NCBI RefSeq assembly: GCF_053078305.1
Contig: NZ_CP166878.1
DNA: 32,715 bases
Origin: a plasmid
Reading direction: 5' to 3' (one strand)
The position numbers and the translations under genes were made by a program. Shown piece after piece: positions 1 through 32,689 of the stretch. Position 1 is the stretch's first letter, and each line of letters opens with the position of its first letter. The notes under the pieces are model-generated. The model saw nothing but the letters and a program-made list of their open reading frames with translations. It was not told where the DNA came from and ran no database searches.

Positions 1-1866
1 ATGCAAGCAAATGATGAGTTTCTTCGCTTGGTTTTTGAAAACATATGGCCATGGTGGACATATGCCTGGGTTTTAGTTTTTTCTTTGTTATGTGTGTTTA
101 CATTTTCGGGTCATGCAGAAAAAAGTGGTGATAAGAGTACTCTGCGTTTCATTATTGAAGCAGCCAGGAAGAAATTACTTGTTGCATGGATTTTATGTAC
201 TCTTTTGTTCTTTCTATTTGTGTACATAATAGCGTGGAAACACTTTGGGGAAGATTCACATAAAGCATCACTTTATATGGAGTTATTGTATGAGCGGATT
301 GGTGACAAATCTTTCTCATTTGGTGATTATTGTGGTATAGCATTTGTGCTACTTTTTCCCTATGCCTGTCAGATAATTAATCGCCGTCTTATAAGACCAA
401 AACTATCATCATGGCTTCGTCGTTTTCGTGTGTCTCAGACCTCGGATACTATGAGTGATATTCGTGTTGAGAAAGGTAAATATTCGCCTAAAAACTTCAA
501 TCCTTTAGATTATTATAAGGATGGTCATTTCTTTTTAGGATTAGATGAAAATGATAAAGCAATCTACGTTACAGATGACTATTTGTCTAAAGTAAATATT
601 AAAATTTTAGGCGCAACGCAAACGGGTAAAGGTGTTATTCAGGGGGTTATTGCAGACCAGGCAATATTGAAAAATTGGGGTTTGTGGTTCTGGGATCAGA
701 AACCAGATAAATTTATTTACTCGATTATGAAACAACGTTGTGAGTCAGAGGGGCGAGAAATATATGAAGTTGATTTGAATGGTGAAGGTATAGGTGATTA
801 TGCGCCATTTAAGAATGGTACAAAACGTGAAATTTTGGATAGGTTTTTTAATGCGTTTTCTCTTGAGACTGGCGGGACTGATGCAGACTATTACAAAAAT
901 AATGCACAGGAGGTTATGTACTATATATATACTTTTTGGGACCGTTCGTTAAACGATTTACAAAAATTGTTGTCTGGTAGTGATGATAGAATACCGGAGG
1001 AAAAACAGGAATGGATAGCTAAAAATGGAGCTAATATTCGAACGCAGCTTAATAAATGGTTAGAGCTTCCTTGTCTATCTCCCGCTGATGGTCAGGGATT
1101 AAATGTAACTGAACTGGTTAAGTCAGGTGCGGTTATTTATGTAAAAGGTAGCACAAAAGATAAGGTTGTCAGGGCTGTCTTAAAATCAATGTTGCGTGAG
1201 TGGTCTGCGGCTGTTATTCGTGAACAACCAAAAAATCATGTGTTGGGGATAATTGATGAGGCCCGTTTTGTTATCTCGTCAGAGGTTGCTGATAGTCTGG
1301 CAACTATATTATCCTCAAATGCAAGTTTGTCTATTGCATATCAAGAGAGAGATGACCTTTTAAATATACCGGATGAAAAACCGCAGATTGCTCAGTCAAT
1401 AAAAAAAGGGACGGAAACAAATACCAATTTGACACTTGTTTATCGTTGTAATGACGAGACGGCTGAATGGGTTGCCAAAAATTCTGGTACAACTGCGAAG
1501 AGTCTGACAAAACTTGAAGAAGTCGAAACTGACGGTTATGGCGCGGAAACATGGAAGGGACGACGAATGATTGGACAGGAAGAGGATTACTATATACCAG
1601 TAAATACGGTTCTTGCAGTTGAAGAACGAGTTGGTATTATGCAGACTATGTTTGAACTCAGTCGGGTTTTATTTACATGCTGGGTTCCTGTTCAACGTTT
1701 TTATACACTTCCGGCCCGCCCTCAAACGGAGCACGATAATGTTCAGGATTGTATAAAGAATGATGGTTCAATTTCTCCGAGTGATGAGGATTACTTTAAT
1801 CCTGACATGATTAGTGATGAAGAGCTAGCGATGATAAATAAAACAGTATCGTCAGACAGTAAATAA
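1..1866 (+). CDS. virD4: Type IV secretion coupling protein (VirD4/TraG-family ATPase)
   Basis: 621-aa ORF with Walker A-like GATQTGKG and Walker B-like hydrophobic-DE (LGIIDEARFV), N-terminal hydrophobic segments. ORF begins at window edge, so the true start may lie upstream. Confidence 0.7.
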   Translation: MQANDEFLRLVFENIWPWWTYAWVLVFSLLCVFTFSGHAEKSGDKSTLRFIIEAARKKLLVAWILCTLLFFLFVYIIAWKHFGEDSHKASLYMELLYERIGDKSFSFGDYCGIAFVLLFPYACQIINRRLIRPKLSSWLRRFRVSQTSDTMSDIRVEKGKYSPKNFNPLDYYKDGHFFLGLDENDKAIYVTDDYLSKVNIKILGATQTGKGVIQGVIADQAILKNWGLWFWDQKPDKFIYSIMKQRCESEGREIYEVDLNGEGIGDYAPFKNGTKREILDRFFNAFSLETGGTDADYYKNNAQEVMYYIYTFWDRSLNDLQKLLSGSDDRIPEEKQEWIAKNGANIRTQLNKWLELPCLSPADGQGLNVTELVKSGAVIYVKGSTKDKVVRAVLKSMLREWSAAVIREQPKNHVLGIIDEARFVISSEVADSLATILSSNASLSIAYQERDDLLNIPDEKPQIAQSIKKGTETNTNLTLVYRCNDETAEWVAKNSGTTAKSLTKLEEVETDGYGAETWKGRRMIGQEEDYYIPVNTVLAVEERVGIMQTMFELSRVLFTCWVPVQRFYTLPARPQTEHDNVQDCIKNDGSISPSDEDYFNPDMISDEELAMINKTVSSDSK

Positions 1867-1922: not shown

Positions 1923-2987
1923 ATGGATAAAAAGACAAAAACATATCCTTTTGGTGACATTGAGTTTTTTGACCAGTTAGAGGAACATGCATGGGACCAG
2001 ATTCATGATGGTATGCTACCAATTATGGATTTGTATCTTGATCCGACAGTAACCGATATATTTATAAACAGGTATGACAATATATATACATCTGTCAATG
2101 GCAAGTATGTAAAGACCGACAGTTCCTTTTCCAGTGAACGGGCACTTAAAGCCTGGATTGATCAAATCGCAACGGTGTTGAGGCAGCCATTTTCAACGTC
2201 AGGAAACTATAAATATGGTGATGTCATTGAGCCTGTACTTGATGCCCGATTTCCCGATGGTTCCCGGTTGATGTGTACAGACCCGGTGATTTCACCGCAG
2301 GGTTCTACGGTAAGTCTTCGTAAAGTACCTAAGCAAATACTGGAAGAAAAAGATTTTATAAATTCCGGTATGTTGACGAGAGATATTCTTGATTATCTCA
2401 TTAGTGTTATACAAAAACGGAAAAATTTTATTGTTGCTGGTAATACTGGTTCTGGCAAAACATCACTTTTACGCTTGCTCGCCAGGTATATTGATACGAT
2501 GGAGCGTGTTATCACCGCCGAAGACACTCAAGAACTTCATATACACAGGTATTTTCCGTTAGGGATTGCTCTGGAAGCTGCACATCGTAAAGATGTGAAT
2601 GCGGATCTTCCTTCTCTGGTTCACCTGACTATGCGTGGTAATCCCGATCGTGTATGGGTTGGGGAGGTAAGAACGGCAGAGGCTATAGCTGCTTATTACA
2701 TGGTTCTGGCAAGTGGAACTATAGGTAATGCTACAACTCTGCACTCCGTTACCCCTATGGGGGCAATACGCAAAATGACCTGGCTTATGTCAAGCTATCT
2801 CAGTATCGATTTTCAGATAGCTCAGGATTTAATTATGTCAGAGGTTGACGTGATTATTCAGTGCCGGAGAACATCAAAGCATGGAAGAAGAATTACAGAT
2901 ATCGTCGAAATACGTGAAGGGAAAATTGTTCCTATATTCAAGTTTGATGAAGAGCAAGAAGTACATGTCAGGTTTGACAAAAAATGA
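1923..2987 (+). CDS. virB11: VirB11-family secretion ATPase
   Basis: 354-aa ORF; Walker A GNTGSGKTS, downstream ITAEDTQEL and conserved His-box region typical of VirB11/TrbB traffic ATPases; ATG at 1923. Confidence 0.9.
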   Translation: MDKKTKTYPFGDIEFFDQLEEHAWDQIHDGMLPIMDLYLDPTVTDIFINRYDNIYTSVNGKYVKTDSSFSSERALKAWIDQIATVLRQPFSTSGNYKYGDVIEPVLDARFPDGSRLMCTDPVISPQGSTVSLRKVPKQILEEKDFINSGMLTRDILDYLISVIQKRKNFIVAGNTGSGKTSLLRLLARYIDTMERVITAEDTQELHIHRYFPLGIALEAAHRKDVNADLPSLVHLTMRGNPDRVWVGEVRTAEAIAAYYMVLASGTIGNATTLHSVTPMGAIRKMTWLMSSYLSIDFQIAQDLIMSEVDVIIQCRRTSKHGRRITDIVEIREGKIVPIFKFDEEQEVHVRFDKK

Positions 2988-4560: not shown

Positions 4561-4704
4561 GTCTGTCTCTCATAATTGTTGGTTTATGTGATTGTTGGGG
4601 CGACCGTAAAAATATACGCCAGATGATGGGAGAGCATCTTATTTCGTATTGCTCAAAAAAACATATGACAAATATCACAAAAATGAAGTGCAGGTATTGA
4701 CATC

Positions 4705-4717
4705 GGGGGGGGGGGGG
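4705..4717. repeat. Homopolymeric G13 tract in divergent intergenic region
   Basis: 13 consecutive G read directly, 71 bp upstream of the virB3-like start. Confidence 0.9.
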
Positions 4718-4787
4718 TAACGTAAAGATTATAAATATAAATTTTACAAAACGTAAAAATATACTACGTCATTCGGTAAGAAATCAA

Positions 4788-5120: not shown

Positions 5121-5149
5121 GGATTTAACCAGTAAAAGAGGTGTATACA

Positions 5150-5497
5150 ATGCTCAATCGCATTTCCAGAAAGATATCAACATTCCAGATAATGCTTTAC
5201 GTAGCATTAGTGACAGGAAGTGTCACACCGGCTATGGCTGCTGGTAATAGTACAGTTAAACTTCCTACGCCGGATGATAGTTTTTTACAGAAAATCGTTA
5301 ACTGGATGCAAAGTATTCTGGATCTGGTTGGTGGGGCTGGAGCTTTGTTCTTTGCGTTTGTCAGTGGGTTTGCTTGTATTGTGTTGTGGGGACTTGCACC
5401 GCAACAGAGCCAGGCTATCGGGAAACTGTTTCGTGCTGCTGTTGCAGCAATTGCAGCGTTTAACCTGGCGTTCTTTATTGCCTGGCTGCAAAAATGA
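5150..5497 (+). CDS. virB2: VirB2/TrbC-like pilin precursor
   Basis: Long signal peptide ending AMAAG, two hydrophobic helices (GGAGALFFAFVSGFACIVLWGL; AAVAAIAAFNLAFFIAWL); ATG 5150 with AGAGG RBS (ORF track extends to GTG 5141). Confidence 0.65.
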   Translation: MLNRISRKISTFQIMLYVALVTGSVTPAMAAGNSTVKLPTPDDSFLQKIVNWMQSILDLVGGAGALFFAFVSGFACIVLWGLAPQQSQAIGKLFRAAVAAIAAFNLAFFIAWLQK

Positions 5498-5508
5498 GGT
5501 GATCCACG

Positions 5509-8924: not shown

Positions 8925-9388
8925 AAAAATATCTGATTCTTTTCTTCATGATGTTTTCAGCCTCGGCAATGGCTAAGATTGGCTATGTTGATGAGCATCA
9001 AAAGGAAGTTGACCTAAAAATTGACGCTCTGATTTCTAAATATGAAAAAGAATGTGAAGGTAAACGCAATAGTAATATGTGTAAATCCCAGGCATGGGAT
9101 AAGGCTCATTTTGAATATGAAGATGAATTTAGAGGCGAAGATAAATATAATCATAAGCATTATGATGGCCTGACAAAAGATCAGGCAGTCGCGAAGTTAC
9201 ATGAACTTATTAAATTGCATAATATTGTTTCTAAAGATGAACGCAATCCTGAAAGTTGGCCTGGAAAATTAGACACACTAACTATTAATGGTGAGATTAA
9301 CTATATAGTTAGAAAACACTGGCCAGCATGGATTAATCCATGTGATAAGATTTGTGCGGAACTGTTACTTAGACAAATAGGTAAATGA
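8921..9388 (+). CDS. Secreted protein between virB5- and virB6-like genes (possible entry-exclusion protein)
   Basis: Signal peptide MKKYLILFFMMFSASAMA; the equivalent position holds eex in pKM101-type clusters; function is inferred only from position. Confidence 0.4.
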   Translation: MKKYLILFFMMFSASAMAKIGYVDEHQKEVDLKIDALISKYEKECEGKRNSNMCKSQAWDKAHFEYEDEFRGEDKYNHKHYDGLTKDQAVAKLHELIKLHNIVSKDERNPESWPGKLDTLTINGEINYIVRKHWPAWINPCDKICAELLLRQIGK

Positions 9389-9429
9389 TGTAGCGTTTAA
9401 CAGGCTATATCTTTAATTTGGGGGCTATT

Positions 9430-10419
9430 ATGCTTCGAGGATTCTTTTTGTCTTTAATTAACAGACTCTTATTTGTAGTCCTGTTTTTATCTGTCTCATT
9501 TTATGCCAGTGCAGAAACAGCTATGCGCACAAACTTTCAGAATGGCGTAAGTGAGATGGTTAATAAAATACTAAATAGCCCGGATAGTGATTTACGTGTC
9601 TGGACTATTGCCGCATCAACTTTCCTGGCTGCGGTAACGGCATTCGTCTATTTCTGGCGGTTCGTGGAAAATGGTGGGGCGTTAGTTGATTTATTCACGC
9701 TTGCAATCATGTTTATGTTATCAATGTCATTGCTTGCTTCTTACTCAATGGTTGTTGATACTATCACAGGCGCTTTTTATGCGATATCAAATACACTACA
9801 GAAACTGGCGTTAGGTAATATTAAGCCGAGTTTTCTGCAAAATTTTGTAGAGGGCGTGTTAACAAAGGCTATTTCAGCACCATCGGTTGATATTTTTGAT
9901 GGCATGAATATGGTTGGCATGGCGCTCTTGTGGGAAATATGTTCTGCTATTTTGTCTGTTGCTATATATCTTGCTGATGTTTGGATTGATGTTGGGACAG
10001 CAATAGCAAAAATTACAGGTGTTATGTTTATTCCTTTTTTGGTTGCGCCAGCAACAAGAGGAATTTTTGATGGATGGTTTAAATTCTATATTGGATGGGG
10101 GCTTGCAGCGGTTGTACTTAAAATAACATCTATTGTGGTAATGATAATGATCAGGGCATCAATTAACTCTGCGGGTAGTTTCCAGGGCGCTGGCGATGTT
10201 ATCGCGTCAGATGGTACTGTTAATGGCGTTCTTAATATAACAGCTAATAATATCAGCTTGTTACGTGATATTTGTGCATATTCTGTAATCGCTGCAATTA
10301 TGGTGTTCAGTTGTTTTATATTTGCGTACATGATTGGTTCTGGTGTCGGCTCTGCAAGTCAGGGTTTGAATAATATGGCAGTAAAACTAGCCAAGAAAGC
10401 GGCTAAAGCATTATTGTAA
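9430..10419 (+). CDS. virB6: VirB6-like polytopic inner-membrane protein
   Basis: About 330 aa with multiple hydrophobic helices; ATG 9430 after GGGGG RBS (ORF track starts at TTG 9418). Confidence 0.65.
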   Translation: MLRGFFLSLINRLLFVVLFLSVSFYASAETAMRTNFQNGVSEMVNKILNSPDSDLRVWTIAASTFLAAVTAFVYFWRFVENGGALVDLFTLAIMFMLSMSLLASYSMVVDTITGAFYAISNTLQKLALGNIKPSFLQNFVEGVLTKAISAPSVDIFDGMNMVGMALLWEICSAILSVAIYLADVWIDVGTAIAKITGVMFIPFLVAPATRGIFDGWFKFYIGWGLAAVVLKITSIVVMIMIRASINSAGSFQGAGDVIASDGTVNGVLNITANNISLLRDICAYSVIAAIMVFSCFIFAYMIGSGVGSASQGLNNMAVKLAKKAAKALL

Positions 10420-10428
10420 GGTGAACGT

Positions 10429-11148
10429 ATGCTGCTTGAAAAAAAAGAAGTCGAAAAAGTAAATCGCACAGCCTTTAAGGATCGTGTTGGTGAACTAAAA
10501 AAAGACAGAAATTTGTTTTTCTGGATTGCCTTGCTTCTTGCCGGGACGACGATATATCAGTCATATTCTGTTCAGGAGGCAATAGAGAAAAGCCAGAATA
10601 CTACAGAAGTAGTATGGGTGAAATTATTGCCTGATGGTTCACATAAAATATCACAATTTACGCCAGACAATGAGCAGCCTATATATACACCAACAGTGAA
10701 CTCATTGCTGTCAAAGTATATGCAGAAGCGCTATGGACAGTTAAAAGAGACTATAGAACGGGATTATGCAGAAGCGGCAGTATTTATGTCTCCTGTACTT
10801 ACAGGGGAGTTTGCCGATCCCAAAGGGTTTAATGTCGCTCAGAAAGTTGTGGATATTCAGGCCGATATGGCAGCAAAAAGGATTGATATAGAAATAAAAG
10901 ATATTGACCATTATGACGCGATAGAAGGTCAGTTTGATGGTGATGTCAAACCTGTAATTCGAACGCTTGTTACTTATCAGGAGATAACAAGGGATTATCA
11001 GGGTAAAGAAATTTCATCGGTTCAACAAATGAGGCGTCTTCAATGGACGTTGTTACAACGTAACGAACTTAGTAAACAATCGCTGGACTGGCTTAACATC
11101 AATCCGCTGGGAATCCAGATTATTGATGATAAATCCGTACAACAGTAA
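10429..11148 (+). CDS. virB8: VirB8-like bitopic protein
   Basis: 239 aa, single N-terminal TM (LFFWIALLLAGTTIY), periplasmic domain; position after the virB6-like gene. Confidence 0.65.
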   Translation: MLLEKKEVEKVNRTAFKDRVGELKKDRNLFFWIALLLAGTTIYQSYSVQEAIEKSQNTTEVVWVKLLPDGSHKISQFTPDNEQPIYTPTVNSLLSKYMQKRYGQLKETIERDYAEAAVFMSPVLTGEFADPKGFNVAQKVVDIQADMAAKRIDIEIKDIDHYDAIEGQFDGDVKPVIRTLVTYQEITRDYQGKEISSVQQMRRLQWTLLQRNELSKQSLDWLNINPLGIQIIDDKSVQQ

Positions 11149-11160
11149 AGGAACTTAATC

Positions 11161-11994
11161 ATGTTAGCGAAAAGAACTCTCTTATTTTCTGGAGTCCTGG
11201 CTGTTGTCATGACTACGTTCAGTGCAACAGCACAGCAATGTAGAGTGGTTAACTGGCGGCCTGGAACAATAGTTAAAGTGCAGTCCGCTTTATATCTGGG
11301 AACTCGTATAGAACTGCCGGAAGGCTCAATGTTATTAACGAAAGAACCCTTTTCTTCTAATGCGCTATGGGCCAGCACGGGAGCCGCAAATCAGGTCATG
11401 ATTCAGCCTACCAGCGAAGAGCCGGAAGGGCTGAAAACGATGGTAACAGTATTTATGACTAACGGGCAGACGCTGGATATTGAGGCTGTTCGGGTATCTC
11501 AGAACCAGAATCAACAGTGTGTTCAGATCCGTGGTGCAGGTATGCGTTCCGCAGACAGAAGTGCATTAAACACGGCTTACAGTATGGGAGCATCCGGGGC
11601 TGATGTGGCTCGTTTACAGAATGAAGTGAATACATTGCGGAGTAACAGAGAAAGCGAAGTCAAAAACGCAGTTCTTGAAGCTCTTCGTCGATACCGATAT
11701 TTCATTTATACCCGTTATAACTGGACGACAGGTAAAGGTTTTAGCGGAAAGAATATGATCTCTGATGTTTATGATGACGGGCGTTTTACTTATATCCGTA
11801 TCGCAAAACCGAATCGTGGATTACTTGCGGTACATGCAGATGTCGGAGGAAAACCAGCGGTTATTCCTACCAAGTACGACGATGCATATGCCATTTATCA
11901 TATGTCAGGGATATATCCCAAATTTACCCTTACCCTGGATGGCGTAAAGCTGGAAGTCAGCCGTGCGGATAATGCGACTGATGGGGAGAGCTAA
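11161..11994 (+). CDS. virB9: VirB9-like outer-membrane channel subunit
   Basis: Signal peptide, 277 aa, C-terminal beta-rich region; order B8-B9-B10. Confidence 0.7.
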   Translation: MLAKRTLLFSGVLAVVMTTFSATAQQCRVVNWRPGTIVKVQSALYLGTRIELPEGSMLLTKEPFSSNALWASTGAANQVMIQPTSEEPEGLKTMVTVFMTNGQTLDIEAVRVSQNQNQQCVQIRGAGMRSADRSALNTAYSMGASGADVARLQNEVNTLRSNRESEVKNAVLEALRRYRYFIYTRYNWTTGKGFSGKNMISDVYDDGRFTYIRIAKPNRGLLAVHADVGGKPAVIPTKYDDAYAIYHMSGIYPKFTLTLDGVKLEVSRADNATDGES

Positions 11995-11996
11995 TT

Positions 11997-13403
11997 ATGG
12001 AAGAACGTCAGGAGAAAGTAGAAGAAAAACCAGCTACTTACCGTAAAAAAATACAGTATTACGCTTTTGGTACTTTTGGTGTGATCCTGGTAATTCTTTT
12101 TATCAATATGGTGATAAGTATTGCCTCAAGGAACGAGGAAGAACCAAAGGAAAATGCGAAACAGGAAACTGCCAGCACTGCGCCAAATACAACGGAAAAG
12201 TTTAATGCGTTACTGAAAAACAGTGGTGCACGTCCTTCTGCCTCCGTTAATCAGGCTAATACGGTTGGAAATAAGGATAGTGCCAGTAATGGAAATCCGA
12301 ATAGTGAAACAGATAAAAAACCTGTTCACCCTTACAGCCGGGAAAAAGAGGCGTCTCAGGAGAGGGGGGCGAGAGCAAGTGATGCGGGGTCACCTGATGA
12401 AATCAGGGCACGCTTTAAGGCTGATGAGATTAACCGAGCACTGCGTGCCAGGTCAGATAAAACAAATTTTGACAGCACTAAAAATACGGTTGCGGGTAGT
12501 GGTAATGCATATGCCCCGGCAGCATCGTTTACCGGAAACCGGACTAATGCGCAGCGTATCAGCGATATAAACGCAGAGCAGAATGGATTGCAGGAACGTA
12601 TCCAAATGATGGAATCAAAAGTTCGTGCTGATGAAGCCGCTTTGCCTGGACGACTGGAAGAAGCCCGGATACGTGGGGAACAGCAATTTGCAGAAGCCCG
12701 ACAGGGTGGAGCAGGAAGTAACGCGACATCGGTAACTAAGGGGAGTACCCAGAGCGTACCGTCCGGTGTTGTGGGATATACAGCCAGTAATCCTTATGGG
12801 GCAAGTGTTGATGGAATGATGAAGTTGCCAGTAGGTACGGTCCTGAATGCCATTACCACATTTACGGCTATTTCTGATTATTCCGGCGGCTCAATGAAGG
12901 CCATGCTTACGCATGATATCTATGATGCGACGCATAGCTACATTCTTGCGCCTAAAGGAAGTGAGTTCGTTATCAGGGTCGTTAAAGCCTCCCAGGTAAA
13001 CGAAATCCTTCAAAGCCGTATTGGATTCCAGGTTACATGGCTTGTATTGCCTGATGGTAACAGGGTCGATTTTAAAACCTCGTCGTCTCTTGACCGAATG
13101 GGGACTCCGGCGGTTGAAGGCGATGAGGTGGACAGGCATTTGCTCGCTCAGTTTCTTGGCGTAGCGGCCTATGCCCTTGTGGGGACGAAAACCAGCTACG
13201 AAGGCTCAGGTGATAGTAACGAGAGTTTTGCCGGGAATTTTGGCGAAGGCGCTCGTACTCAGGCAGGAAATATCGCTCAAAAATACCTCCAGGTTGTGCC
13301 TACAACAACGTTACATGCGGGAGCACCGATCAGGGTCTTTACCGAAGATGAGATATACATGAAGCCGTGGAGAAATATTTATGAAACGGATTATACGGGC
13401 TGA
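11997..13403 (+). CDS. virB10: VirB10-like protein
   Basis: 468 aa, N-terminal TM, Pro/Glu/Ala-rich linker, C-terminal beta-barrel-like domain. Confidence 0.75.
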   Translation: MEERQEKVEEKPATYRKKIQYYAFGTFGVILVILFINMVISIASRNEEEPKENAKQETASTAPNTTEKFNALLKNSGARPSASVNQANTVGNKDSASNGNPNSETDKKPVHPYSREKEASQERGARASDAGSPDEIRARFKADEINRALRARSDKTNFDSTKNTVAGSGNAYAPAASFTGNRTNAQRISDINAEQNGLQERIQMMESKVRADEAALPGRLEEARIRGEQQFAEARQGGAGSNATSVTKGSTQSVPSGVVGYTASNPYGASVDGMMKLPVGTVLNAITTFTAISDYSGGSMKAMLTHDIYDATHSYILAPKGSEFVIRVVKASQVNEILQSRIGFQVTWLVLPDGNRVDFKTSSSLDRMGTPAVEGDEVDRHLLAQFLGVAAYALVGTKTSYEGSGDSNESFAGNFGEGARTQAGNIAQKYLQVVPTTTLHAGAPIRVFTEDEIYMKPWRNIYETDYTG

Positions 13404-13875
13404 AATATTGTTTTTTGCTGCATTCTTTGCATTTTCCTGTCAGGCAGCAAGAAGTCCTTTCCAGGTAGACAGGATGCGAGAAAGTGCGCCTGTTCAGATA
13501 TCACAGCAGGATGTGCATGTGCAGGGAAACTTTCAGGAGTTACAACCACTGGACAGGAACCAGAAAGATCCTCGCTGGCAGTATATCGATCCGTTGAGTG
13601 TTTACATGCGTACAGTTTGGCCCGATAACATCAGGACTATCAGAGCAGCGGTGAACTATCTCCTTGAACCAACAGGATATCGCCTGGTAACGAGTCATCC
13701 GGCACCGCGTGAGGCTTCCCTTCTTGTTGATAAGCCATTACCGCCAATTGCCAGAATGCAACGCACAATGCCCGTAGTTGATGCTCTTCAGTTGCTGGTT
13801 GGGCTTGATAATTATGTTGTTATTGATCGTGCCCACAGGCTGGTTTCATTTCAGAAAAATGGGGGCGGTGTATGA
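13381..13875 (+). CDS. Hypothetical exported protein within T4SS cluster
   Basis: Signal peptide MKRIIRAEILFFAAFFAFSCQA; 164 aa; overlaps virB10 end by 23 nt; no family recognised. Confidence 0.45.
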   Translation: MKRIIRAEILFFAAFFAFSCQAARSPFQVDRMRESAPVQISQQDVHVQGNFQELQPLDRNQKDPRWQYIDPLSVYMRTVWPDNIRTIRAAVNYLLEPTGYRLVTSHPAPREASLLVDKPLPPIARMQRTMPVVDALQLLVGLDNYVVIDRAHRLVSFQKNGGGV

Positions 13876-14096
13876 AGGAATGGTGTATGCGGATTATTTT
13901 TGTTGCTTTCCTGGCTATTGCAACGGTGATTCTTTGCTTATTTATGACGGGGTGTGCACAACGTTATGAGAGTGGTCATGATCAGCTTTTCGAACTGTCA
14001 GAACGCCATATCATTTACCGGGATCTGACTGTTCCGGCATCGATGAGCAATTTGCCGGAGAAGCAGCAGATAAGCGTACCGGGGATTGAGCCGTGA
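13872..14096 (+). CDS. Small lipoprotein (VirB7-like candidate)
   Basis: Lipobox LFMTGC after hydrophobic leader; 74 aa; start could instead be ATG 13887. Confidence 0.45.
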   Translation: MKEWCMRIIFVAFLAIATVILCLFMTGCAQRYESGHDQLFELSERHIIYRDLTVPASMSNLPEKQQISVPGIEP

Positions 14097-14770
14097 ACGT
14101 CCGGTTAATTTTCATGCTGGCGTTTCTGATATCTGGCGGTATCAGCGCATCAACGGATGAAGAAATTCTACTGGCGTCGATAACCGCGCCAGGAGTTACC
14201 AGCTTTACCGATGAATCACCTTCTTCGGAATGGATTACAGCGATGCAGGGACGTTGGGGGAGTACAACTGATATGAAGGATATGCGTAGTTTGCGCGAGA
14301 TAAGAGAAGCGGTGATTGCTGAAATTAATGCCGTATCAGAGCCGGTGGTGGAGAAAACAGGGCCAGAAAACAAAGAATCGACCACAGGAATAAAAATATC
14401 TGAAAAAATACAGGCGATAATCAATAAATACGCAGAAAAATATCAAATTAGTGAAACTTTGTTGAAAGCGTTAATTAAAACGGAGTCTGGATTTAATCCA
14501 AACGCTGTCAGCAGAAAAGGTGCAAAGGGACTGATGCAGTTAATGCCTGTACATACCAAAAGGCATAATGCTGATCCCTTTGATGTTGAAACCAATGTGA
14601 AAATTGGTACAGGGCATCTTTCATATCTTCTCGATAAATACGGGGATTTACGGCTTGCTCTGGCTGCATATAACGCTGGGGAAGGTGCTGTTGATAAATA
14701 TGGCGGTATCCCCCCTTATAAGGAAACACAACAGTATGTAAATAAGATCATGGCAATGTTAGGAGGTTAA
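14093..14770 (+). CDS. virB1: Lytic transglycosylase (VirB1-like, SLT domain)
   Basis: SLT catalytic motif region ALIKTESGFNPNAVSRKGAKGLMQLMP and AYNAGEGAV; GTG start. Confidence 0.8.
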   Translation: MNVRLIFMLAFLISGGISASTDEEILLASITAPGVTSFTDESPSSEWITAMQGRWGSTTDMKDMRSLREIREAVIAEINAVSEPVVEKTGPENKESTTGIKISEKIQAIINKYAEKYQISETLLKALIKTESGFNPNAVSRKGAKGLMQLMPVHTKRHNADPFDVETNVKIGTGHLSYLLDKYGDLRLALAAYNAGEGAVDKYGGIPPYKETQQYVNKIMAMLGG

Positions 14771-14772
14771 AT

Positions 14773-15132
14773 ATGACAAAAATAAAGATACTGATATTTG
14801 CAGCTTTTGTCTCATTTGGAACCGTGCATAGCGCCAGCGCGGAAAATGGAAGTGATGCTCTGTCACTGACAGGAGAATTTCTTGAGCAACCTGTTAACAG
14901 TAGTGATCCATGTACTGTTTTTCTCTGTATGGCTGGAATGCTTAAGGGGGAATCGCCTGGTGAATGTAGTGGGGCAAAGAAAAAATTTTTCAGCATTATC
15001 AAAAGGAAGCATGGCAGTTTTCATCCAGGAAGAACATTTAATGCCCGGAAAGCGTTTCTTGGTGATTGTCCGTCAGCACCTGGAGATATTGTAGGCAAGA
15101 TACTTGATAAATACGGAAAATTACGCTGGTAA
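14773..15132 (+). CDS. Hypothetical Cys-rich exported protein
   Basis: Strong AGGAGG RBS, signal peptide ending HSASA; 119 aa; unknown function. Confidence 0.5.
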   Translation: MTKIKILIFAAFVSFGTVHSASAENGSDALSLTGEFLEQPVNSSDPCTVFLCMAGMLKGESPGECSGAKKKFFSIIKRKHGSFHPGRTFNARKAFLGDCPSAPGDIVGKILDKYGKLRW

Positions 15133-15665: not shown

Positions 15666-15818
15666 CTACGGGGATGATAATACCCATGAGGTTGATACTT
15701 GGCAGAGTCAGCTTGTGGGCATTATCAGGGGACTATAAAAGCCCATTTAAATTGTATTTAAATCATCCGGTAACGGCAAGAAAAATAATGTGTCATTCAG
15801 GCATAAGTGCAGGGCCAT

Positions 15819-16787
15819 ATGATTAGTCCGGCAATTGATTATTTTGCGGCAAACTTGCCATACCGACCTTATCACGCGAATGAATTGCTCTATGGGCTTC
15901 GTATCGATAAGGCAGCTAAAGCAGTGCTGGCGCGTTATATACAGCATAATCCACCTCATGCAATGTACTGGCTTGTTTTTGACGTTGACAGGCCAGTTGC
16001 GGCGATTGACTGGAATGATCTTAATGCGCCCACACCTAATTTTACGGTCAAAAATCCGGTTAATGGTCATGCACACCTGTTTTATGGGTTAAAAACGGCA
16101 GTTCGTGTTGCCAAAGACGGTAGCATTAAGGCGATCGAGTTTGCTGCTGCGGTAGAGCGAGGATTACGTGACAAACTTAAATCAGATATCGGCTATGCAG
16201 GGCTGATCTGTAAAAATCCTCTCCATACATGCTGGCAGGTTGTTGAATGGCGTGGAGAACTTTATGAGTTAGCTGAACTGGCTGATTATGTTGATTTGTA
16301 CGCGTCAACAGCGGCTAACGATGAACAGGCATTCGATATCGACTTTAGTTATGGGCTTGGGCGAAATTGTTGGCTCTTCAATCTGACCCGTATCTGGTCA
16401 TATACAGCAATCCGGCAGGGCTGGCCTGATTTCCCGCAATGGAAAGAAGCGGTGATTCAGCGTGTCGAAATGTATAACGTGCAGTTAAGCGTGCCTTTGT
16501 CTCACAAAGAATGTGTATGCATTGGCTCCAGCATCGCCAAATGGACGCATAGACGCTTCACTGAAGCTGGATTTGAGCAATATGTAGCTGATACCCATAC
16601 ATCAGAAATTCAGGCTCGTAGAGGGCGTAAGAATCGCTCAGAAGTGCAGGCTGCTAAGGGGCGTAAAGGTGGGAAAATATCTAAAAGAGGGATTGTTGAG
16701 GATTCTGCGCGGAGTTTGAAACCGTGGGTAGAGTTAGGGATCAGTCGGGCAACCTATTATCGACGTAGGGCAAATGAGACCAAATAA
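15819..16787 (+). CDS. ColE2-type plasmid replication initiator (primase-type Rep, Replicase family)
   Basis: N-terminal region YRPYHANELLYGLRIDKAAKAVLARYIQHNPPHAMYWLVFDVDR is characteristic of ColE2-like Rep proteins as I recall them; basic HTH-like C-terminus; origin-like sequence overlaps the stop. Confidence 0.65.
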   Translation: MISPAIDYFAANLPYRPYHANELLYGLRIDKAAKAVLARYIQHNPPHAMYWLVFDVDRPVAAIDWNDLNAPTPNFTVKNPVNGHAHLFYGLKTAVRVAKDGSIKAIEFAAAVERGLRDKLKSDIGYAGLICKNPLHTCWQVVEWRGELYELAELADYVDLYASTAANDEQAFDIDFSYGLGRNCWLFNLTRIWSYTAIRQGWPDFPQWKEAVIQRVEMYNVQLSVPLSHKECVCIGSSIAKWTHRRFTEAGFEQYVADTHTSEIQARRGRKNRSEVQAAKGRKGGKISKRGIVEDSARSLKPWVELGISRATYYRRRANETK

Positions 16788-17649: not shown

Positions 17650-17710
17650 CAACCCCCTGATATCTCTCTTAGAGCTTTTGCGGGGCCAAAGAAGATAATC
17701 AGGGGGTCCA
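17650..17710 (+). promoter_or_regulatory. Long stem-loop in repA leader (candidate antisense-RNA target)
   Basis: Arms CCCCCTGATATCTCTCTT / AAGAAGATAATCAGGGGG around an 18-nt loop containing GCCAA (one base off the conserved IncFII/IncB loop hexamer); location upstream of leader peptide and repA. Confidence 0.45.
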
Positions 17711-17743
17711 AAGCAGGCTTTTGCCTGTAAAGGATTATAGCAA

Positions 17744-17800
17744 ATGCATTTTTCAATACAAGACTACTGCCCGGCAATAAGTGCGGGCGGTGGTGGCTGA
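17744..17800 (+). CDS. Leader peptide overlapping repA start (translational coupling candidate)
   Basis: 18-codon ORF MHFSIQDYCPAISAGGGG whose stop lies 17 nt inside repA, the arrangement seen for tap/repY-type leader peptides. Confidence 0.45.
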   Translation: MHFSIQDYCPAISAGGGG

Positions 17801-18506
17801 AAAGAACAATTCCTTAATCCCCCGCATATCGCCGTCAGGGGTGGCCAAACAAAGTCCATGCTATAACGTTGTGTCGCGTAAGCGACGCCGTTTCCTCAAT
17901 CGCTGGATTAAATCGCTGGCGACGGTCGCTGGGCGTGTCAAAATCAAAAACGAACTCCGCCGCCGTATCCGGCATAACCGATATTGGGTTAATGAGGCTA
18001 ACAAGTTTGGCATAGAGGCACTTTGCGAACTGATGTTAGCTATCCTGGATGATCTCGATTTACGCTCCTGGGAAACCAGGCATAACCTCGAAACACTGGC
18101 AGAACGTGCCGGACTGGTGACACGCAGTGACGCGGGGCGTAAATCTATTTCCCGTGCCAGTAGGGGATGTGATCGCCTGGTCTGGTTGAATGCGATCATT
18201 ACAGATAAAGCGCCGTTTAACCCCTATGATGCACGGTGTGCCTGTAAACACATTGAAGTAACCGAAGACTTCTTTGCCATACTCGGCATTCCGTTAAAAC
18301 TGGTTTATCGGGAACGTGCCAGGCTGTTAAAGGCAGATCCTAATGAAATGATTTACTCCGGGGATGCCAGACTGATAGCTATCAGAGTCCAGAACTGGAC
18401 ACGGAAAGCGGCAGCCGGATTAGCCCGGATGAAAGCGAAACGCGACGCAGCTCGACAACGCAAAAAAGAATATTACGCTCACCCACCTACCCCTATTCCG
18501 GTCTGA
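17781..18506 (+). CDS. repA: IncFII-family replication initiator RepA
   Basis: Segment LETLAERAGLVTRSDAGRKSISRASRGCDRLVWLNAIIT aligns with the RepA1 core of R100-type proteins (SITTLAIECGLATESAAGKLSITRATRALTFLSELGLIT); GTG start right after an in-frame stop. Confidence 0.75.
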   Translation: MRAVVAEKNNSLIPRISPSGVAKQSPCYNVVSRKRRRFLNRWIKSLATVAGRVKIKNELRRRIRHNRYWVNEANKFGIEALCELMLAILDDLDLRSWETRHNLETLAERAGLVTRSDAGRKSISRASRGCDRLVWLNAIITDKAPFNPYDARCACKHIEVTEDFFAILGIPLKLVYRERARLLKADPNEMIYSGDARLIAIRVQNWTRKAAAGLARMKAKRDAARQRKKEYYAHPPTPIPV

Positions 18507-26458: not shown

Positions 26459-26737
26459 TCAACCCTTTATAGACGAAGTGAAGTCAGACCACTGTTCAAT
26501 CCTGAATGCTCTGATATCCCTGACTGAATTTGGGAACCATTCAAGAGCTTTTAATGCGTTCATAGCCTGAAAAAGGTTTGCCATATTTTCATCGCTATTT
26601 GTGTACAGGCTTCCCTGGATTCGCTCAAATCCGTACCTTTTAAGGGTCGAACTTATATCGTTGTAAGCCTGTGACACGCCTTTCGGATGGTGTTTTTCTG
26701 TATCTGCAACGGTTAAATCAAATGATATTGCGTACAT
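26459..26737 (-). CDS. vapD: VapD-family endoribonuclease (Cas2-like fold)
   Basis: MYAISFDL N-terminus, QGSLYTN and SVRDIRAF motifs match VapD proteins as remembered. Confidence 0.85.
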   Translation of the reverse strand: MYAISFDLTVADTEKHHPKGVSQAYNDISSTLKRYGFERIQGSLYTNSDENMANLFQAMNALKALEWFPNSVRDIRAFRIEQWSDFTSSIKG

Positions 26738-26740
26738 AAC

Positions 26741-27031
26741 TTACTCTGCATCAGGATCTTGTAATAGTTTTGAAAGTTTGTACAACTCTTTCTCACCTGT
26801 CTGAACCAGTATAATGTTGACAAGAATATCACCATCAGGTAGTTCTTGGGCTGGCTCTCCTACCTCGTAAGGAATACCAAGCAGCCCGAATGTCTTAATC
26901 GTACCTGTTGGAATTTGCACTGTATTCATTGTTTTCGCTCCGATTTCCAGCCTCATCTTATCAGTCATAGCTTTGATAATAGCCTGACTGTCAGGTGACT
27001 GGGCCGCAATTACTTCTTCTAATGTTCTCAT
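26741..27031 (-). CDS. Hypothetical protein immediately upstream of vapD (possible cognate partner)
   Basis: 96 aa, 3-bp gap to vapD in the same operon; no sequence-level assignment possible. Confidence 0.5.
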   Translation of the reverse strand: MRTLEEVIAAQSPDSQAIIKAMTDKMRLEIGAKTMNTVQIPTGTIKTFGLLGIPYEVGEPAQELPDGDILVNIILVQTGEKELYKLSKLLQDPDAE

Positions 27032-29320: not shown

Positions 29321-29349
29321 AGGGAATGCTATTGCATTCCCTTTTTTTC
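29321..29349 (+). terminator. Rho-independent terminator
   Basis: AGGGAATGC-TATT-GCATTCCCT followed by TTTTTTT; the convergent minus-strand gene's last codons overlap the hairpin. Confidence 0.7.
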
Positions 29350-29925
29350 TATCAGTGTTGAAAGTTTTTCGCTGTATTCTTTTCGATTATGATGTAATTT
29401 TAGCCTAACGTTAGAAAACTTTTTAAGAACAACTCTTCTATTGCTATAGAAGTCCTTTTTTGATATTTCTCCACAAAGATAAAGAATCCGTTGTTGCTTA
29501 ATGATGTTATCTGTAAGGGTGATAAGGGATATCATCATCATAACAACAGGCGATATAAGAACAGGTATTTTTATTTTTTTGTTATCATTATTTATATGGT
29601 TGTATATATCTTTATAATTTGGTATTTCTGAAACAGTTTGTTTTAAGTGTTCGTAATGCGACGAAAACTCATCTTTTTGAATACGGATAATTTCTTCTGC
29701 TTTTGGCAATAATGATTTTGCAACTATATGTTTTATATAGTGCTCTTTGTTTTTATAACGTTTTAGATTGCTTGATGTAAAAAGAATTTCAAGATATTTA
29801 ATTGTATTAATCGCATCGGTAACATGATGCTTGTGAATAAGTTTTTCACTATGTAATTTGTTGTCAATTTCTCCAATAAGAAATTGATCATTTATTCTTA
29901 AATTAAGTTGTTTTCTCTCCATCAT
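29329..29925 (-). CDS. Hypothetical protein with single central TM helix (198 aa), second gene of AT-rich operon
   Basis: ORF with AAGGTGG RBS embedded in the upstream gene's end; hydrophobic segment IPVLISPVVMMMISLITL; unusually AT-rich relative to neighbours. Confidence 0.55.
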   Translation of the reverse strand: MMERKQLNLRINDQFLIGEIDNKLHSEKLIHKHHVTDAINTIKYLEILFTSSNLKRYKNKEHYIKHIVAKSLLPKAEEIIRIQKDEFSSHYEHLKQTVSEIPNYKDIYNHINNDNKKIKIPVLISPVVMMMISLITLTDNIIKQQRILYLCGEISKKDFYSNRRVVLKKFSNVRLKLHHNRKEYSEKLSTLIEKKGMQ

Positions 29926-30380
29926 ATATACCCACCTTTTTCTTCAACTAGTGTCAGTTTATCAGTCGATGCGATTTTGTTACCACTCATAAAAAACATA
30001 CTGACCCATAAGTACAAATCTGATTCATAGTAAAATCCTTCGTGTTTTTTTAGTTTGCTTAAAGTGCTATAATGTTCATCCTTATTTTTTGCATAATAAA
30101 GTTTGACAATAAGGTAACACTCTTCCTGTGTTCCCTTTGATAAACACCAATCGAATATTCCATCCCATGAGATATTTTCTAAGCTAAAAAAGTTCTGTTT
30201 TCTTAATTTCTGGCGTTGTCTGTTTAAAAGAATGCTTTGTTGAGTATCGTTGTATTGCTGGGCACCAAGAACAGGATCTTCACAGCGAACGCCACGAACA
30301 GGGCGTTTGTCAAATGACAGTTCCCATAGGTTAATATCTGGTATGAACTCGTAATCTTCCGGTTTCGCCAGACGGAACAT
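29922..30380 (-). CDS. Hypothetical protein (about 152 aa), first gene of AT-rich operon
   Basis: Start set at the ATG preceded by AAGGA RBS (ORF track extends to TTG at 30449); stop overlaps the downstream gene start (ATGA-type coupling); no family recognised. Confidence 0.5.
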   Translation of the reverse strand: MFRLAKPEDYEFIPDINLWELSFDKRPVRGVRCEDPVLGAQQYNDTQQSILLNRQRQKLRKQNFFSLENISWDGIFDWCLSKGTQEECYLIVKLYYAKNKDEHYSTLSKLKKHEGFYYESDLYLWVSMFFMSGNKIASTDKLTLVEEKGGYI

Positions 30381-30460
30381 AACGCTATCCTTTGTCTGTT
30401 GTGTGTTCGGTAGTTCTGGTTTACCGTAAAACAAAAATTTTTTCAACAAAGGTGTTTAAT

Positions 30461-30676
30461 ATGAGCGATAAGATCCAAGAAATCACACAAAAAATTGAGA
30501 AATTGCAGATAAAATTGAGCAAAATTGAAGAGGAAAAAAACAAGATACAATCAAAGCTGGTTAAGTTAGAAGAAGAGAAAAAATCAATACAGCGCAAGCT
30601 GATTCTACAGGAGAAAAGAGAAGAGCTTGAAATGCTTTTAGACAAAGAAAGTTTTGATATTTTATTCAATAAATGA
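30461..30676 (+). CDS. Small coiled-coil protein (71 aa)
   Basis: Heptad-like K/E/I/L-rich sequence (IQEITQKIEKLQIKLSKIEEEKNKIQSKLVKLEEEKKSIQRKL); AAAGGTG RBS; divergent from the AT-rich operon. Could be a chance ORF in AT-rich DNA. Confidence 0.4.
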   Translation: MSDKIQEITQKIEKLQIKLSKIEEEKNKIQSKLVKLEEEKKSIQRKLILQEKREELEMLLDKESFDILFNK

Positions 30677-30692
30677 GCATGATTTTTGGGAG

Positions 30693-30721
30693 AATTGCCC
30701 TCTGATTATCAGAGGGCAATT
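30693..30721. other. 29-bp palindrome (AATTGCCCTCTGAT-T-ATCAGAGGGCAATT)
   Basis: Perfect 14-bp arms; weak T-run, so a terminator or protein-binding site is equally possible. Confidence 0.6.
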
Positions 30722-30974
30722 TGTCATTGGTAGTGCCTATTACCGTTAGTTATGATCACGAAAAACGCGATGATTGTTCATTACAATGCCCTATCGTTAG
30801 ACAGGACATGTGAGCGTTTTATCAACAACGTAAGCAGAATTTTTTGCAGAAATGATCCTGCATCAATACTGAAAATCGTTGTTGTCTTACATGTGTTAAA
30901 CATGATTTTTTAGTCAATTTCATAACAAAATATACCTACGTTTTTTTGGGAAGTCCTCTTACTGAACCAACAGA

Positions 30975-31885
30975 AAGAGGACGAAAAAGAGGAAACATGA
31001 ATGTTTCCTCTGCCATGTTACTACCGTGAATTTTCAGCTACTTATCTGTACTGGTTGCCTCCAGTATTTTCAGATTCATCTACAGACTTCGGCTATATCG
31101 TCTGTAGATTTTTGCGCCTACTCGTTCACTCTCCCACACTCAGGAATGTAATTTCGGTGCCACCCGAAATTTTCCAGAGTGCTTCCCACGTTAGCTGATC
31201 TTGTCGGGATAACCCGCCACTGGCTCAGACAAACTACTAGGCTACGCCTTACCATTTCTGGCTTTCAGGGGGCCGAGATTCCAAAGCACCTCCCTTACTC
31301 ATAATTTGCCGTCAACACCATAGCCAGACACTTAAGTCATGGCTGGTTATCACTTACCCGAATGCGACCTCTTCGGACGCAATTACAGGCTTGAGCTTTA
31401 CAGCGATCTGCAAAGGTTGCCCCTCACAGTACCGACGTTTCCAGGTTTCCCCTCAACGCCCTGACACCTCACGATGCCCTCAGCAGCCCACCTGTCGGGA
31501 ATATGTTGTACCTTCTCAAGCACCCCATATTCGGGATTTTCACCCGTTCAAGATCAACAGGGATCACGTAGTCACCTACGTTCCCGTTTCCGTGTCGCCC
31601 AGTCTCACGCTTTGGCGTGGATTGGGTCGGACAGGGGAGTTTCACCCCCGAACGCCCTTCGTAGCCGTACCAGCCCAATTACAGGCATACGGCTTCGGCA
31701 GTAACTGTTATCAGGGTTGGCAGTCCTGATAACTCACCTTCGTTTGGCAGACGAAGGCTTTTGGCTTTTTTCGTCTTTCGACTTCCCAAAAATGCGTCGA
31801 GAGTTGGCAGCTCGCAACGCACGTTTTGTTACGTAAGCGATGCTTGATAGTCCGGCGCCCGAAAGGCTCGCATCGAGCCGGACAT
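30975..31885 (-). ncRNA. Candidate ~900-nt structured non-coding RNA (unclassified)
   Basis: ORF-free, G-rich on the minus strand; minus-strand sigma70-like promoter (-35 TTGCGC, 17-bp spacer, -10 TATTAT at 31918-31890) and a minus-strand terminator (GAGGAAACAU-UC-AUGUUUCCUC then UUUUU) at 31003-30975; many internal hairpins. Confidence 0.3.
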
Positions 31886-31996
31886 CAGTATAATATTTAA
31901 CCTGTAAGCGCAGCGCAAGGAATCTCTTTATAAGGTATTCCCATATGTTGATTTCTTTTATGTAGCGGTTACTACATAGCTTTTATGAGGATTTCG

Positions 31997-32689
31997 ATGA
32001 TTTACCGTTTTAAAACCGATTTTATGCGTCAGATAGCCATGCTGTTTTCGCTGGGATATACAAGGTGGTTTGGTGGCGAAATTCCTCTAAACCCTCACTA
32101 TAAATTCGTGTCACTAAAAGCACGTTTTGATGAACTCTACGCTATCAATGCAACAGCACAACAACGTTTCAGGAGAAGAGAAAAAGGAGTAGCAAACTGC
32201 AAATTTCTTGTCTGGTTTGATGAAAAAAATGCAACTCTTTTATGGGTGTTACTTGCAACAGAAGGGGATGTATACAATGAAGAGAAATTTTATGATGGTA
32301 TGAATAAAAAAACTCGTATTTCTGTTTCAGGTTATGAACTAAAAACAGTTCCACATCGAGGTAGAAAACCTAGCGTTTCATGGGCTATGAAGAAAGAAAC
32401 TTATGAAAAGTGGCATGCGGATATAAAGAAGTCGATAAGAACAAGAAATGATGAGAATATAGAAAAATTATGGTATTCACTCAGGAGGGTGGCAGGGTTT
32501 AGTGAGTTACGTAGACAGGTATTTAAGTTACAGAGATATGCAATGACAGAGTGGAAACGCTCCAGAAGAGGTGAATATCCTTATGAGAAGATTTTTGTTG
32601 GATGGTTAGGACGATTTAAACAAAGTGAAACCATCACAGATGAAGAGCTTTTGTTAATATCGAAGTCAAAAAAAGCTGATATCTTTTAG
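31997..32689 (+). CDS. Hypothetical protein (about 230 aa), basic/aromatic-rich
   Basis: ORF with GAGGA RBS before ATG 31997 (track start 31985); preceded by inverted repeat ATGTAG-N6-CTACAT; no family recognised. Confidence 0.5.
   Translation: MIYRFKTDFMRQIAMLFSLGYTRWFGGEIPLNPHYKFVSLKARFDELYAINATAQQRFRRREKGVANCKFLVWFDEKNATLLWVLLATEGDVYNEEKFYDGMNKKTRISVSGYELKTVPHRGRKPSVSWAMKKETYEKWHADIKKSIRTRNDENIEKLWYSLRRVAGFSELRRQVFKLQRYAMTEWKRSRRGEYPYEKIFVGWLGRFKQSETITDEELLLISKSKKADIF

Follow-up and report, generated by a model that had tools for sequence, protein, structure and literature searches.

Results

The locus and its plasmid setting

The window, that is, the whole stretch of DNA analysed here with its 32,715 nucleotides (contig NZ_CP166878.1, assembly GCF_053078305.1), is a complete circular plasmid, and the region has matches of 99.2-99.8% in ten E. 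coli plasmids of 28-35 kb from PLSDB. It encodes a VirB-type type IV secretion system (T4SS), comprising VirB4, VirB8, VirB9, VirB10, VirB11, a VirB6-like protein, a lytic transglycosylase and TrbM, together with CcdAB, SSB and ParA, and it carries two plasmid replication genes with the Rfam PK-repBA element at 17651-17778. A non-exhaustive scan of the plasmid ORFs detected no relaxase family, and PLSDB types all the matching plasmids as non-mobilizable.

Near the end of the window, an acpG-like gene on the plus strand stands back to back with a GC-rich, C-skewed stretch at about 31000-31800, which is the RNA region (Table 1). The operon at the window end runs on through the circular junction into the ORF at the window start, which encodes a 621-aa protein with N-terminal transmembrane segments, a P-loop (GATQTGKG) and an IIDEA motif. 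This protein matches TIGR03743 (SXT_TraD) at E=8e-7, below the curated cut-off, and has no PADLOC match; by these weak sequence signals it is a probable divergent type IV coupling protein (T4CP), and a gene for a VirB11-type ATPase follows it. On the other side of the locus, two hypothetical genes lie downstream of the RNA on its strand, for which PADLOC returned weak matches only (Helicase_II at E=5e-4; coiled-coil). A homologue of the 175-aa ORF (72% amino acid identity) adjoins the RNA in the 3-kb plasmid L002, and in two of the other loci compared (L004 and L007) a homologue of the 198-aa ORF is found downstream of the RNA.

The first-pass annotation had placed a basic protein of 230 aa at this position, and the ORF is indeed present on the plus strand, with a pI of 9.9 for its product. 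The longer call, 31985..32689, gives 234 aa, while the 230-aa form begins at ATG 31997, the RefSeq start. We prefer ATG 31997 because a Shine-Dalgarno-like GAGGA lies 5 nt upstream of it and the homologues align from that Met; the numbering of the entry GI 300949988/5-196 in a published alignment implies the 31985 start.

Table 1. Features of the acpG-ribozyme locus and its flanks, with positions in the window
Feature	Position	Strand	Description
621-aa ORF (probable T4CP)	1..1866	+	26 nt downstream of acpG across the circular junction
VirB11-type ATPase	1923..2987	+	PF00437, E=3.5e-25; same operon direction as the 621-aa ORF
Hypothetical gene, 198 aa	29329-29925	-	Downstream of the RNA on its strand
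Hypothetical gene, 175 aa	29922-30449	-	Downstream of the RNA on its strand
Intrinsic terminator of the RNA gene	30988..31011	-	10-bp stem, then UUUUU; hairpin covaries in 7 homologues
CP group II core, P1 to 3′ strand of closing helix	31017..31758	-	P1-P2-D5-D6-(3′ splice site)-linker-(5′ splice site)-D1-D2-D3
D3	31026..31129	-	Covarying consensus structure
J2/3	31130-31135	-	Purine-rich GGGAGA; precedes D3
D2	31136..31182	-	Covarying consensus structure
D1	31187..31594	-	Outer helix 31594-31591 with 31190-31187
Putative EBS1 hairpin in D1	31267-31295	-	Loop GGAAUCUCGG, invariant; complementarity scan
5′ splice site	before GGGCG 31600-31596	-	GGGCGAC invariant in 7/7 homologues
Linker	31601..31620	-	CCACGCCAAAGCGUGAGACU, 20 nt; between the splice sites; holds a small conserved hairpin
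3′ splice site	after AAU 31623-31621	-	Matches published NU
Bulged branch-point A	31627	-	7 nt upstream of the 3′ splice site; conserved in 6/7 homologues
D6	31624..31657	-	GGGCG...CG-A-CCC; compensatory changes in both D6 helices
D5	31663..31694	-	AGCCGUAU-GCCUG-UAAU-UGGGC-UG-GUACGGCU; AGC triad, five pairs, UG bulge on 3′ strand
Long-range closing helix	31698..31705 with 31017-31024	-	100% of cells paired; changes on both sides in 5/8 pairs
P2 hairpin	31707..31733	-	Loop ACUGCCAAC; 8/9 pairs with changes on both sides
P1 hairpin	31736..31758	-	Loop CUGCCAA; 7/8 pairs with changes on both sides
Two conserved hairpins upstream of P1	31794-31820 and 31850-31883	-	Loop CUGCCAACU in the former, GUCCGGC...GCCGGAC in the latter; compensatory changes, L004 and L007
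Inverted repeat	31959-31965 and 31972-31978		TATGTAG-N6-CTACATA, 7-nt arms; just upstream of acpG
Shine-Dalgarno-like GAGGA	31987..31991	+	5 nt upstream of ATG 31997; read from sequence
acpG-like CDS, 230 aa	31997..32689	+	AcpG family; alternative in-frame ATG 31985 gives 234 aa

The divergent RNA is a circularly permuted group II ribozyme

Circularly permuted (CP) group II RNAs have the domain order D5-D6-D1-D2-D3-D4 (Roth, Weinberg, Vanderschuren, Murdock and Breaker, iScience 2021; PMC8637638). [quoted passage not shown] An nhmmer profile of three published RNAs from Data S2 of that study (Acinetobacter radioresistens, Geobacillus sp. WCH70 and Thermus aquaticus) matches the window at 31725-31116 on the minus strand with E=1e-32. 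Together with the covarying consensus structure, the nhmmer alignment places D5 and D6 5′ of D1-D3, with P1 and P2 ahead of them, and a long-range closing helix links the two portions, 5′ and 3′, into which the permuted RNA is divided. The window RNA resembles the RNAs of Roth et al. in the order D5-D6-D1-D2-D3, the AGC triad, the UN bulge, the bulged A, the NU/GGGCG splice sites and P1/P2; its D5, with the lower stem AGCCGUAU/GUACGGCU, agrees with the published UN-bulge D5 and with the Thermus D5 in Data S2.

The consensus structure was derived from seven aligned homologues, namely the window, one 3-kb E. coli plasmid and five metagenomic or MAG loci, on which RNAalifold predicted 215 base pairs. 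Standard pairs fill 95.6% of the cells versus 80.9% in column shuffles, a level that none of the 500 shuffles reached, and 37-41% of cells are paired in slid-partner controls; changes on both sides of a pair, that is, compensatory changes, occur in 102 pairs versus 60 expected. The DNA of the RNA region is also far better conserved than the AcpG protein, with nucleotide identities of 83% and 72% where the neighbouring protein is 49% and 37% identical. Since the sequence and structure features of the class are present, with EBS1 as a putative one, we identify the neighbouring RNA on these grounds as a CP group II ribozyme, and the candidate RNA from which the first-pass annotation saw the protein diverge, at about 31758-31017 of the minus strand, proves to be real and structured.

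Searches of the RNA region with Rfam gave no family at threshold and no group II model even at E<=10, and a tRNA/tmRNA scan found none. Three other assignments were considered and rejected. The only ORF of at least 100 aa inside the RNA encodes 112 aa from a TTG start on the opposite, plus strand (31391-31729), and was rejected as coding on account of the RNA-type covariation; a canonical or ORF-less group II intron was rejected as D5 and D6 lie 5′ of D1; and a ColE1-type replication origin of the 3-kb plasmids was rejected because the rest of these plasmids (2043-3082) is a Col/RepL backbone common to about 950 plasmids, which makes the RNA their cargo. The large plasmid, too, has its own replicons.

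The D1 loop GGAAUCUCGG is likely EBS1. When paired by hand, its AAUCUC matches the last six nucleotides of the linker at 6/6 positions in L003, L006 and L009 (GGGAUU), and at 5/6 positions, with an A-C mismatch, in the lineage of the window, wherein the linker ends in GAGACU; the register scored by the EBS1-IBS1 complementarity scan is offset from the splice site by 2 nt in the upstream direction. Splicing is predicted to release the linker CCACGCCAAAGCGUGAGACU as an RNA circle of 20 nt, which would be short in comparison with those of the published CP group II RNAs. Two conserved hairpins stand upstream of P1, and therefore the start of the RNA transcript probably lies further upstream; the hairpins within 31794..31883 are likely a 5′ extension of the transcript, with an inferred boundary.

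The divergent gene encodes an AcpG-family protein

No match to the window protein was found in Pfam, NCBIfam, PHROG or PADLOC, in agreement with the absence of recognisable motifs reported by the first-pass annotation. Its description of the protein as an orphan does not hold, however: a word-indexed search with the window protein returned 9 clusters, and an HMM profile of these nine relatives, whose alignment seeded an exhaustive search, retrieved 822 cluster representatives at E<=1e-3, of which 554 reach E<=1e-10. The entry GI 300949988/5-196 in the published AcpG alignment (Data S3, Roth et al., 2021) is identical to the window ORF at 191/192 positions.

The founding member of that family is TTHC007, an ORF of about 260 aa on the Thermus plasmid pTT8, which was named AcpG by Roth et al. 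(2021; PMC8637638) for its recurrence beside CP group II RNAs, often in divergent orientation; these authors report no detectable homology of AcpG to any known protein class (PMC8637638). BLASTP found no similarity between the window protein and TTHC007. By hhalign, the window family matches the TTHC007 family with a probability of 97.6% (E=4e-12), and with the 48-member alignment the profile match rises to 99.2% (E=6e-20, 188 columns); the relationship is thus one seen by profile-profile comparison only. The window protein, with 230 aa, is of a size with AcpG proteins, which have about 200-260 aa and no recognised domain, and neither it nor TTHC007 has a known domain. Judged by its sequence, the window ORF is an AcpG-family protein already catalogued in the published alignment, and the locus shares with the TTHC007 system the protein family, the RNA class and the frequent divergent layout (PMC8637638).

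Pairing of the RNA with acpG and its distribution

In all ten informative loci (the window, which is L001, and L003, L004, L006, L007, L009, L011, L012, L013 and L014; L008 and L010 are too short), the RNA lies upstream of acpG on the opposite strand, over protein identities of about 25-99%, and the same is seen in pTT8. Another gene intervenes between acpG and the RNA in L003 and L009. The protein was not found without the RNA in the informative loci, and the converse, RNA without protein, does occur. The functional link between protein and RNA that the first-pass annotation suggested is therefore supported by synteny and agrees with the published association (PMC8637638); the pairing of RNA and AcpG itself is already known.

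Of 5,426 complete E. coli genomes, 20 have the element, and in each of them it is plasmid-borne. The RNA and acpG occur together on 27-35-kb plasmids in 14 of these genomes, and the RNA occurs alone on plasmids of about 3 kb in seven, six of which have no close acpG copy; a single genome has both an RNA + acpG plasmid and an RNA-only plasmid. The 3-kb plasmids consist of the Col/RepL backbone, the RNA and a homologue of the window ORF 29922-30449. Genomes with the RNA and without acpG have been reported in other lineages, and neither Escherichia nor Salmonella appears among the published RNA hosts (Roth et al., 2021; PMC8637638). What sets the window pair apart from those of that study is its place on enterobacterial plasmids of 27-35 kb that carry a T4SS, where it stands first in a probable T4CP-VirB11 operon.

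Homologues of the 621-aa protein adjoin the RNA/acpG pair in L004 and L007; VirB11 directly follows acpG in L004, and a 705-aa relative of the 621-aa protein follows it in L007. Elsewhere, L003, of which L006 is a close copy, is a chromosomal island that carries an integrase gene and genes of defence type, and L012 has a resolvase gene and a restriction enzyme gene beside the pair; no T4SS genes were seen at L003, at L012 or in Thermus pTT8. The T4SS linkage of the pair is kept in some loci only and is not universal. As for the defence and mobile-element framing of the first-pass annotation, the mobile part stands, since all contexts are mobile elements, but no match to a defence family was obtained.

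Predicted fold of AcpG

The AlphaFold (AF2) model built from 48 relatives has a mean pLDDT of 95.7 and a pTM of 0.90, and, with conservation that extends from 99% to about 25% identity, acpG is clearly a real gene. In the model, a strand is followed by two helices, two successive beta-hairpins and three long helices, an order that would fit the palm and thumb (X) of group II intron reverse transcriptase (RT)/maturases such as PDB 6ME0 chain C and 7UIM chain D, with the fingers absent. The RT-like fold matches of the model comprise the G2L4 RT, the DGR RT, DRT9, Prp8, retron RTs, the RT domain of a Roseburia maturase and DRT2, and the non-RT matches are short and helical, of about 60-100 residues; a Foldseek search of the model against the PDB gave nothing significant. 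Two very distant AcpG proteins, modelled independently, both resemble group II intron RT/maturases in their predicted structures.

PDB sequence searches with the family profiles found nothing, the 48 members gave no Pfam RVT (RVT_1) or GIIM signal at E<=5, and the conserved Asp pair (motif A Asp and motif C YxDD) was not found in the family. The turn of the first beta-hairpin (residues 75-79) is variable; E96 is the one near-invariant acidic position that hhalign sets against an invariant Glu of the Thermus family, with no other acidic position common to that branch, and about ten basic (Lys/Arg) positions are conserved.

The partner RNA is a group II ribozyme for both AcpG and the group II maturases. 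However, unlike the maturases, AcpG has no RT motifs, YxDD, motif-A Asp, fingers or DNA-binding/endonuclease domains, it is about half their size, and it has no detectable sequence similarity to them; acpG is encoded apart from the RNA, on the other strand, whereas the maturase gene lies within D4. While Roth et al. reported no homology for AcpG, two independent models here point to an RT/maturase-like fold, and no report of a maturase-like reading of AcpG was found in the literature searched. From the predicted structures and the synteny, we infer that AcpG may be a polymerase-dead, RT-derived or RT-like RNA-binding protein; this structural lead, a maturase-like AcpG without the conserved catalytic aspartates, is reproducible.

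Discussion

We consider it fairly probable that AcpG works with its divergent partner, the CP group II ribozyme, as a polymerase-dead, trans-encoded, maturase-like cofactor. On the pattern of the five examples of the class that Roth et al. tested, the RNA of about 0.75-0.9 kb would first fold, and the 2′-OH of the D6 branch-point A at 31627 would attack the 5′ splice site, which precedes the GGGCG at 31600. The 3′-OH thus freed would next attack the 3′ splice site after AAU at 31621, and the expected products would be the 20-nt RNA circle and a branched, T-shaped ribozyme. AcpG, as modelled, would have a palm and a thumb with many conserved Lys/Arg residues and neither fingers nor catalytic aspartates, and it is for this combination that a maturase-like cofactor is proposed; it may bind the ribozyme and stabilise its active fold, or the fold of the branched product, in vivo. 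In the plasmid lineage of the window, acpG is the first gene of an operon that also encodes the probable coupling protein and the VirB11 ATPase, and therefore the ribonucleoprotein (RNP) is probably made together with the transfer machinery.

Some observations count against a cofactor role: the fold match is one of predicted models only, to which neither the Foldseek search nor the searches by sequence added a significant match, CP group II RNAs process themselves in vitro without protein, and the RNA persists without acpG on the 3-kb plasmids. Whether a CP group II RNA needs a protein was left undecided by Roth et al. (2021; PMC8637638).

The operon context also admits a different role, in which AcpG would be a conjugation accessory, such as a relaxosome or coupling-protein partner or a factor for substrate recruitment, that acts on DNA or on the T4SS and neighbours the ribozyme because both are passengers of the same mobile elements. 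The gene stands 26 nt upstream of the probable coupling protein, with VirB11 after it, a like adjacency recurs in L004 and L007, and T4CP and TraD domains are included in the neighbourhood table of Roth et al. (2021; PMC8637638); moreover, as described above, a relaxase family went unrecognised among the plasmid ORFs scanned and the typing was non-mobilizable. The arrangement resembles in position the relaxase-oriT-coupling protein modules, wherein a gene and a structured non-coding region lie upstream of the coupling protein or T4SS ATPase, here a probable one. However, the RNA-acpG pair is kept, and the T4CP adjacency is not, where T4SS genes were not seen (L003, of which L006 is a close copy, L012 and pTT8), and AcpG has neither a relaxase fold nor a relaxase or HUH motif, its family being without a conserved His pair. 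The non-coding region differs as well, as it is a transcribed ribozyme with covariation at the RNA level, whereas an oriT is a nic site with short repeats. We hold an accessory role of this kind to be unlikely.

A DNA-binding regulator of the divergent RNA gene, or of its own operon, would account for a basic protein, a divergent layout and an inverted repeat in the common control region, with the repeat as the operator. The small inverted repeat recorded by the first-pass annotation is present at 31959-31978 but is not conserved in L004 and L007, loci with a 49%-identical protein, and it was rejected as a conserved operator; it is possibly an operator or promoter element, on weak grounds, and arms so short in AT-rich DNA could be a product of chance. 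A scan of the acpG-RNA intergenic region found no consensus sigma-70 promoter, and hand-picked candidates were weak. Nor does AcpG have an HTH or another DNA-binding domain, its model matches the folds of RTs and not those of regulators, and in L003 and L009 another gene lies between acpG and the RNA; we therefore give a regulatory role little credence.

An extension of the cofactor reading was entertained since the plasmid has a full T4SS and a probable coupling protein with the relaxase unrecognised. On the enterobacterial plasmids, the AcpG-ribozyme RNP might conceivably take part in DNA processing for conjugative transfer, with the branched ribozyme, bound by a maturase-like AcpG, cleaving a nucleic-acid strand or becoming covalently attached to it by reverse splicing and so replacing or aiding a relaxase, at the place usually taken by relaxase and oriT. 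We regard this as very improbable, because the T4SS linkage of the pair is not universal; if it were true, the 3-kb plasmids that carry the RNA alone might be mobilised in trans.

That AcpG is an active, highly diverged RT which copies the ribozyme or the 20-nt circle into DNA in a retron-like or DRT-like manner hardly merits belief: its predicted fold does resemble RTs with non-coding RNA partners (group II, G2L4, DGR, DRT9, DRT2 and retron) and a small circle could act as a rolling-circle template, but there is no conserved Asp at motif A or motif C and only one universally conserved acidic residue, the 230 aa without a fingers domain stand against about 400 aa for the matched RTs, and the Pfam RVT signal is absent in 48 members, whereas G2L4, DRT2, DRT9, retrons and DGR are active polymerases with intact motifs, whose non-coding RNAs are templates or scaffolds where the window RNA belongs, by its predicted class, to the self-splicing ribozymes.

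In conclusion, this work explicitly annotates an enterobacterial CP group II ribozyme, borne by natural plasmids of E. coli, and adds a strict protein-to-RNA co-occurrence in the AcpG branch of the window and a structural lead for a maturase-like AcpG that makes the question of what role these ribozymes play more tractable. As the pair is carried by natural small E. coli plasmids of 27-35 kb, ordinary E. coli genetics can be applied to it. If the maturase-like fold of AcpG holds, a specific RNA-protein complex would be predicted, and CP group II ribozymes would have kept a stripped-down, trans-encoded maturase, which would tie them in evolution to the RNPs of ordinary introns.

Replication and transfer functions of the plasmid

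The plasmid appears to carry two replicons, since a PK-repBA pseudoknot (Rfam, 86 bits, E=4e-18) is immediately followed by an IncFII-RepA-like ORF, and another replication gene, belonging to the PF03090 'Replicase' family, is located 1 kb upstream. It also encodes a full VirB-type type IV secretion system (T4SS), together with a probable, divergent coupling protein of 621 aa; the T4SS operon is interrupted by a ccdA/ccdB toxin-antitoxin pair, which separates virB11 from the remaining genes. No relaxase family was detected among the window ORFs scanned, and all 12 of the related plasmids in PLSDB are typed as 'non-mobilizable'. Either the hypothetical proteins include an unrecognised relaxase, or transfer proceeds by a different route.

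A Cas2/VapD-fold protein, named 'virulence factor' in RefSeq and matched by PADLOC to Cas2 (E=1.5e-15), is followed by a DUF5397 protein, and no CRISPR or cas1 match was found among the window ORFs scanned. The two genes probably constitute a VapD-type toxin-antitoxin-like pair.

The ribozyme transcript and its occurrence without acpG

[quoted passage not shown] The first has the loop CUGCCAACU, similar to the loop UGCCAA found in both P1 and P2. Therefore, a repeated loop motif in the RNA is suggested, perhaps as a protein or pseudoknot contact, as is a transcript extending beyond the core RNA model.

The CP group II RNA also occurs without acpG, on seven ~3-kb Escherichia coli plasmids with a Col/RepL backbone, namely L002 (NZ_CP045717.1, 3082 bp) and six others like it. 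Their RNA shows 96% identity, and they also encode a homologue (72% amino acid identity) of a neighbouring window ORF; the corresponding window region is 29922-31737. Of these seven host genomes, just one also contains the large acpG plasmid.

Genes flanking the ribozyme

A 94-aa coiled-coil ORF, which may or may not be a genuine gene, is located between the terminator of the ribozyme and the 175-aa gene; it is missing from the otherwise syntenic flanks in the 3-kb plasmids. A 198-aa hypothetical protein, 43-45% identical across three lineages, is encoded downstream of the ribozyme on the same strand and may be an additional member of the module; Pfam and NCBIfam gave no family match for it, and PADLOC only a weak one (E=5e-4). 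In more distant loci, including the chromosomal island L003, a hypothetical gene of 160-200 aa lies on the RNA's strand between acpG and the ribozyme; its product shows no similarity to the window proteins tested, and it may represent a further lineage-specific partner.

Coordinates of the features described
Feature	Locus	Position	Strand
Coupling protein ORF	window	1-1866	+
T4SS genes	window	about 1923-15132	
ccdA/ccdB	window	3319-3929	+
PF03090 replication gene	window	15807-16787	
PK-repBA pseudoknot	window	17651-17778	+
IncFII-RepA-like ORF	window	17781-18506	
Cas2/VapD-fold gene and DUF5397 gene	window	26459-27031	-
198-aa gene	window	29329-29925	-
198-aa gene	L004	6323-6901	
198-aa gene	L007	235-810	
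ORF with homologue on ~3-kb plasmids	window	29922-30449	
94-aa ORF	window	30392-30676	+
First extra hairpin	window	31794-31820	-
Second extra hairpin	window	31850-31883	-
160-200-aa gene	L003	9098-9703	-
160-200-aa gene	L009	1980-2522	-
160-200-aa gene	L010	3-491	-
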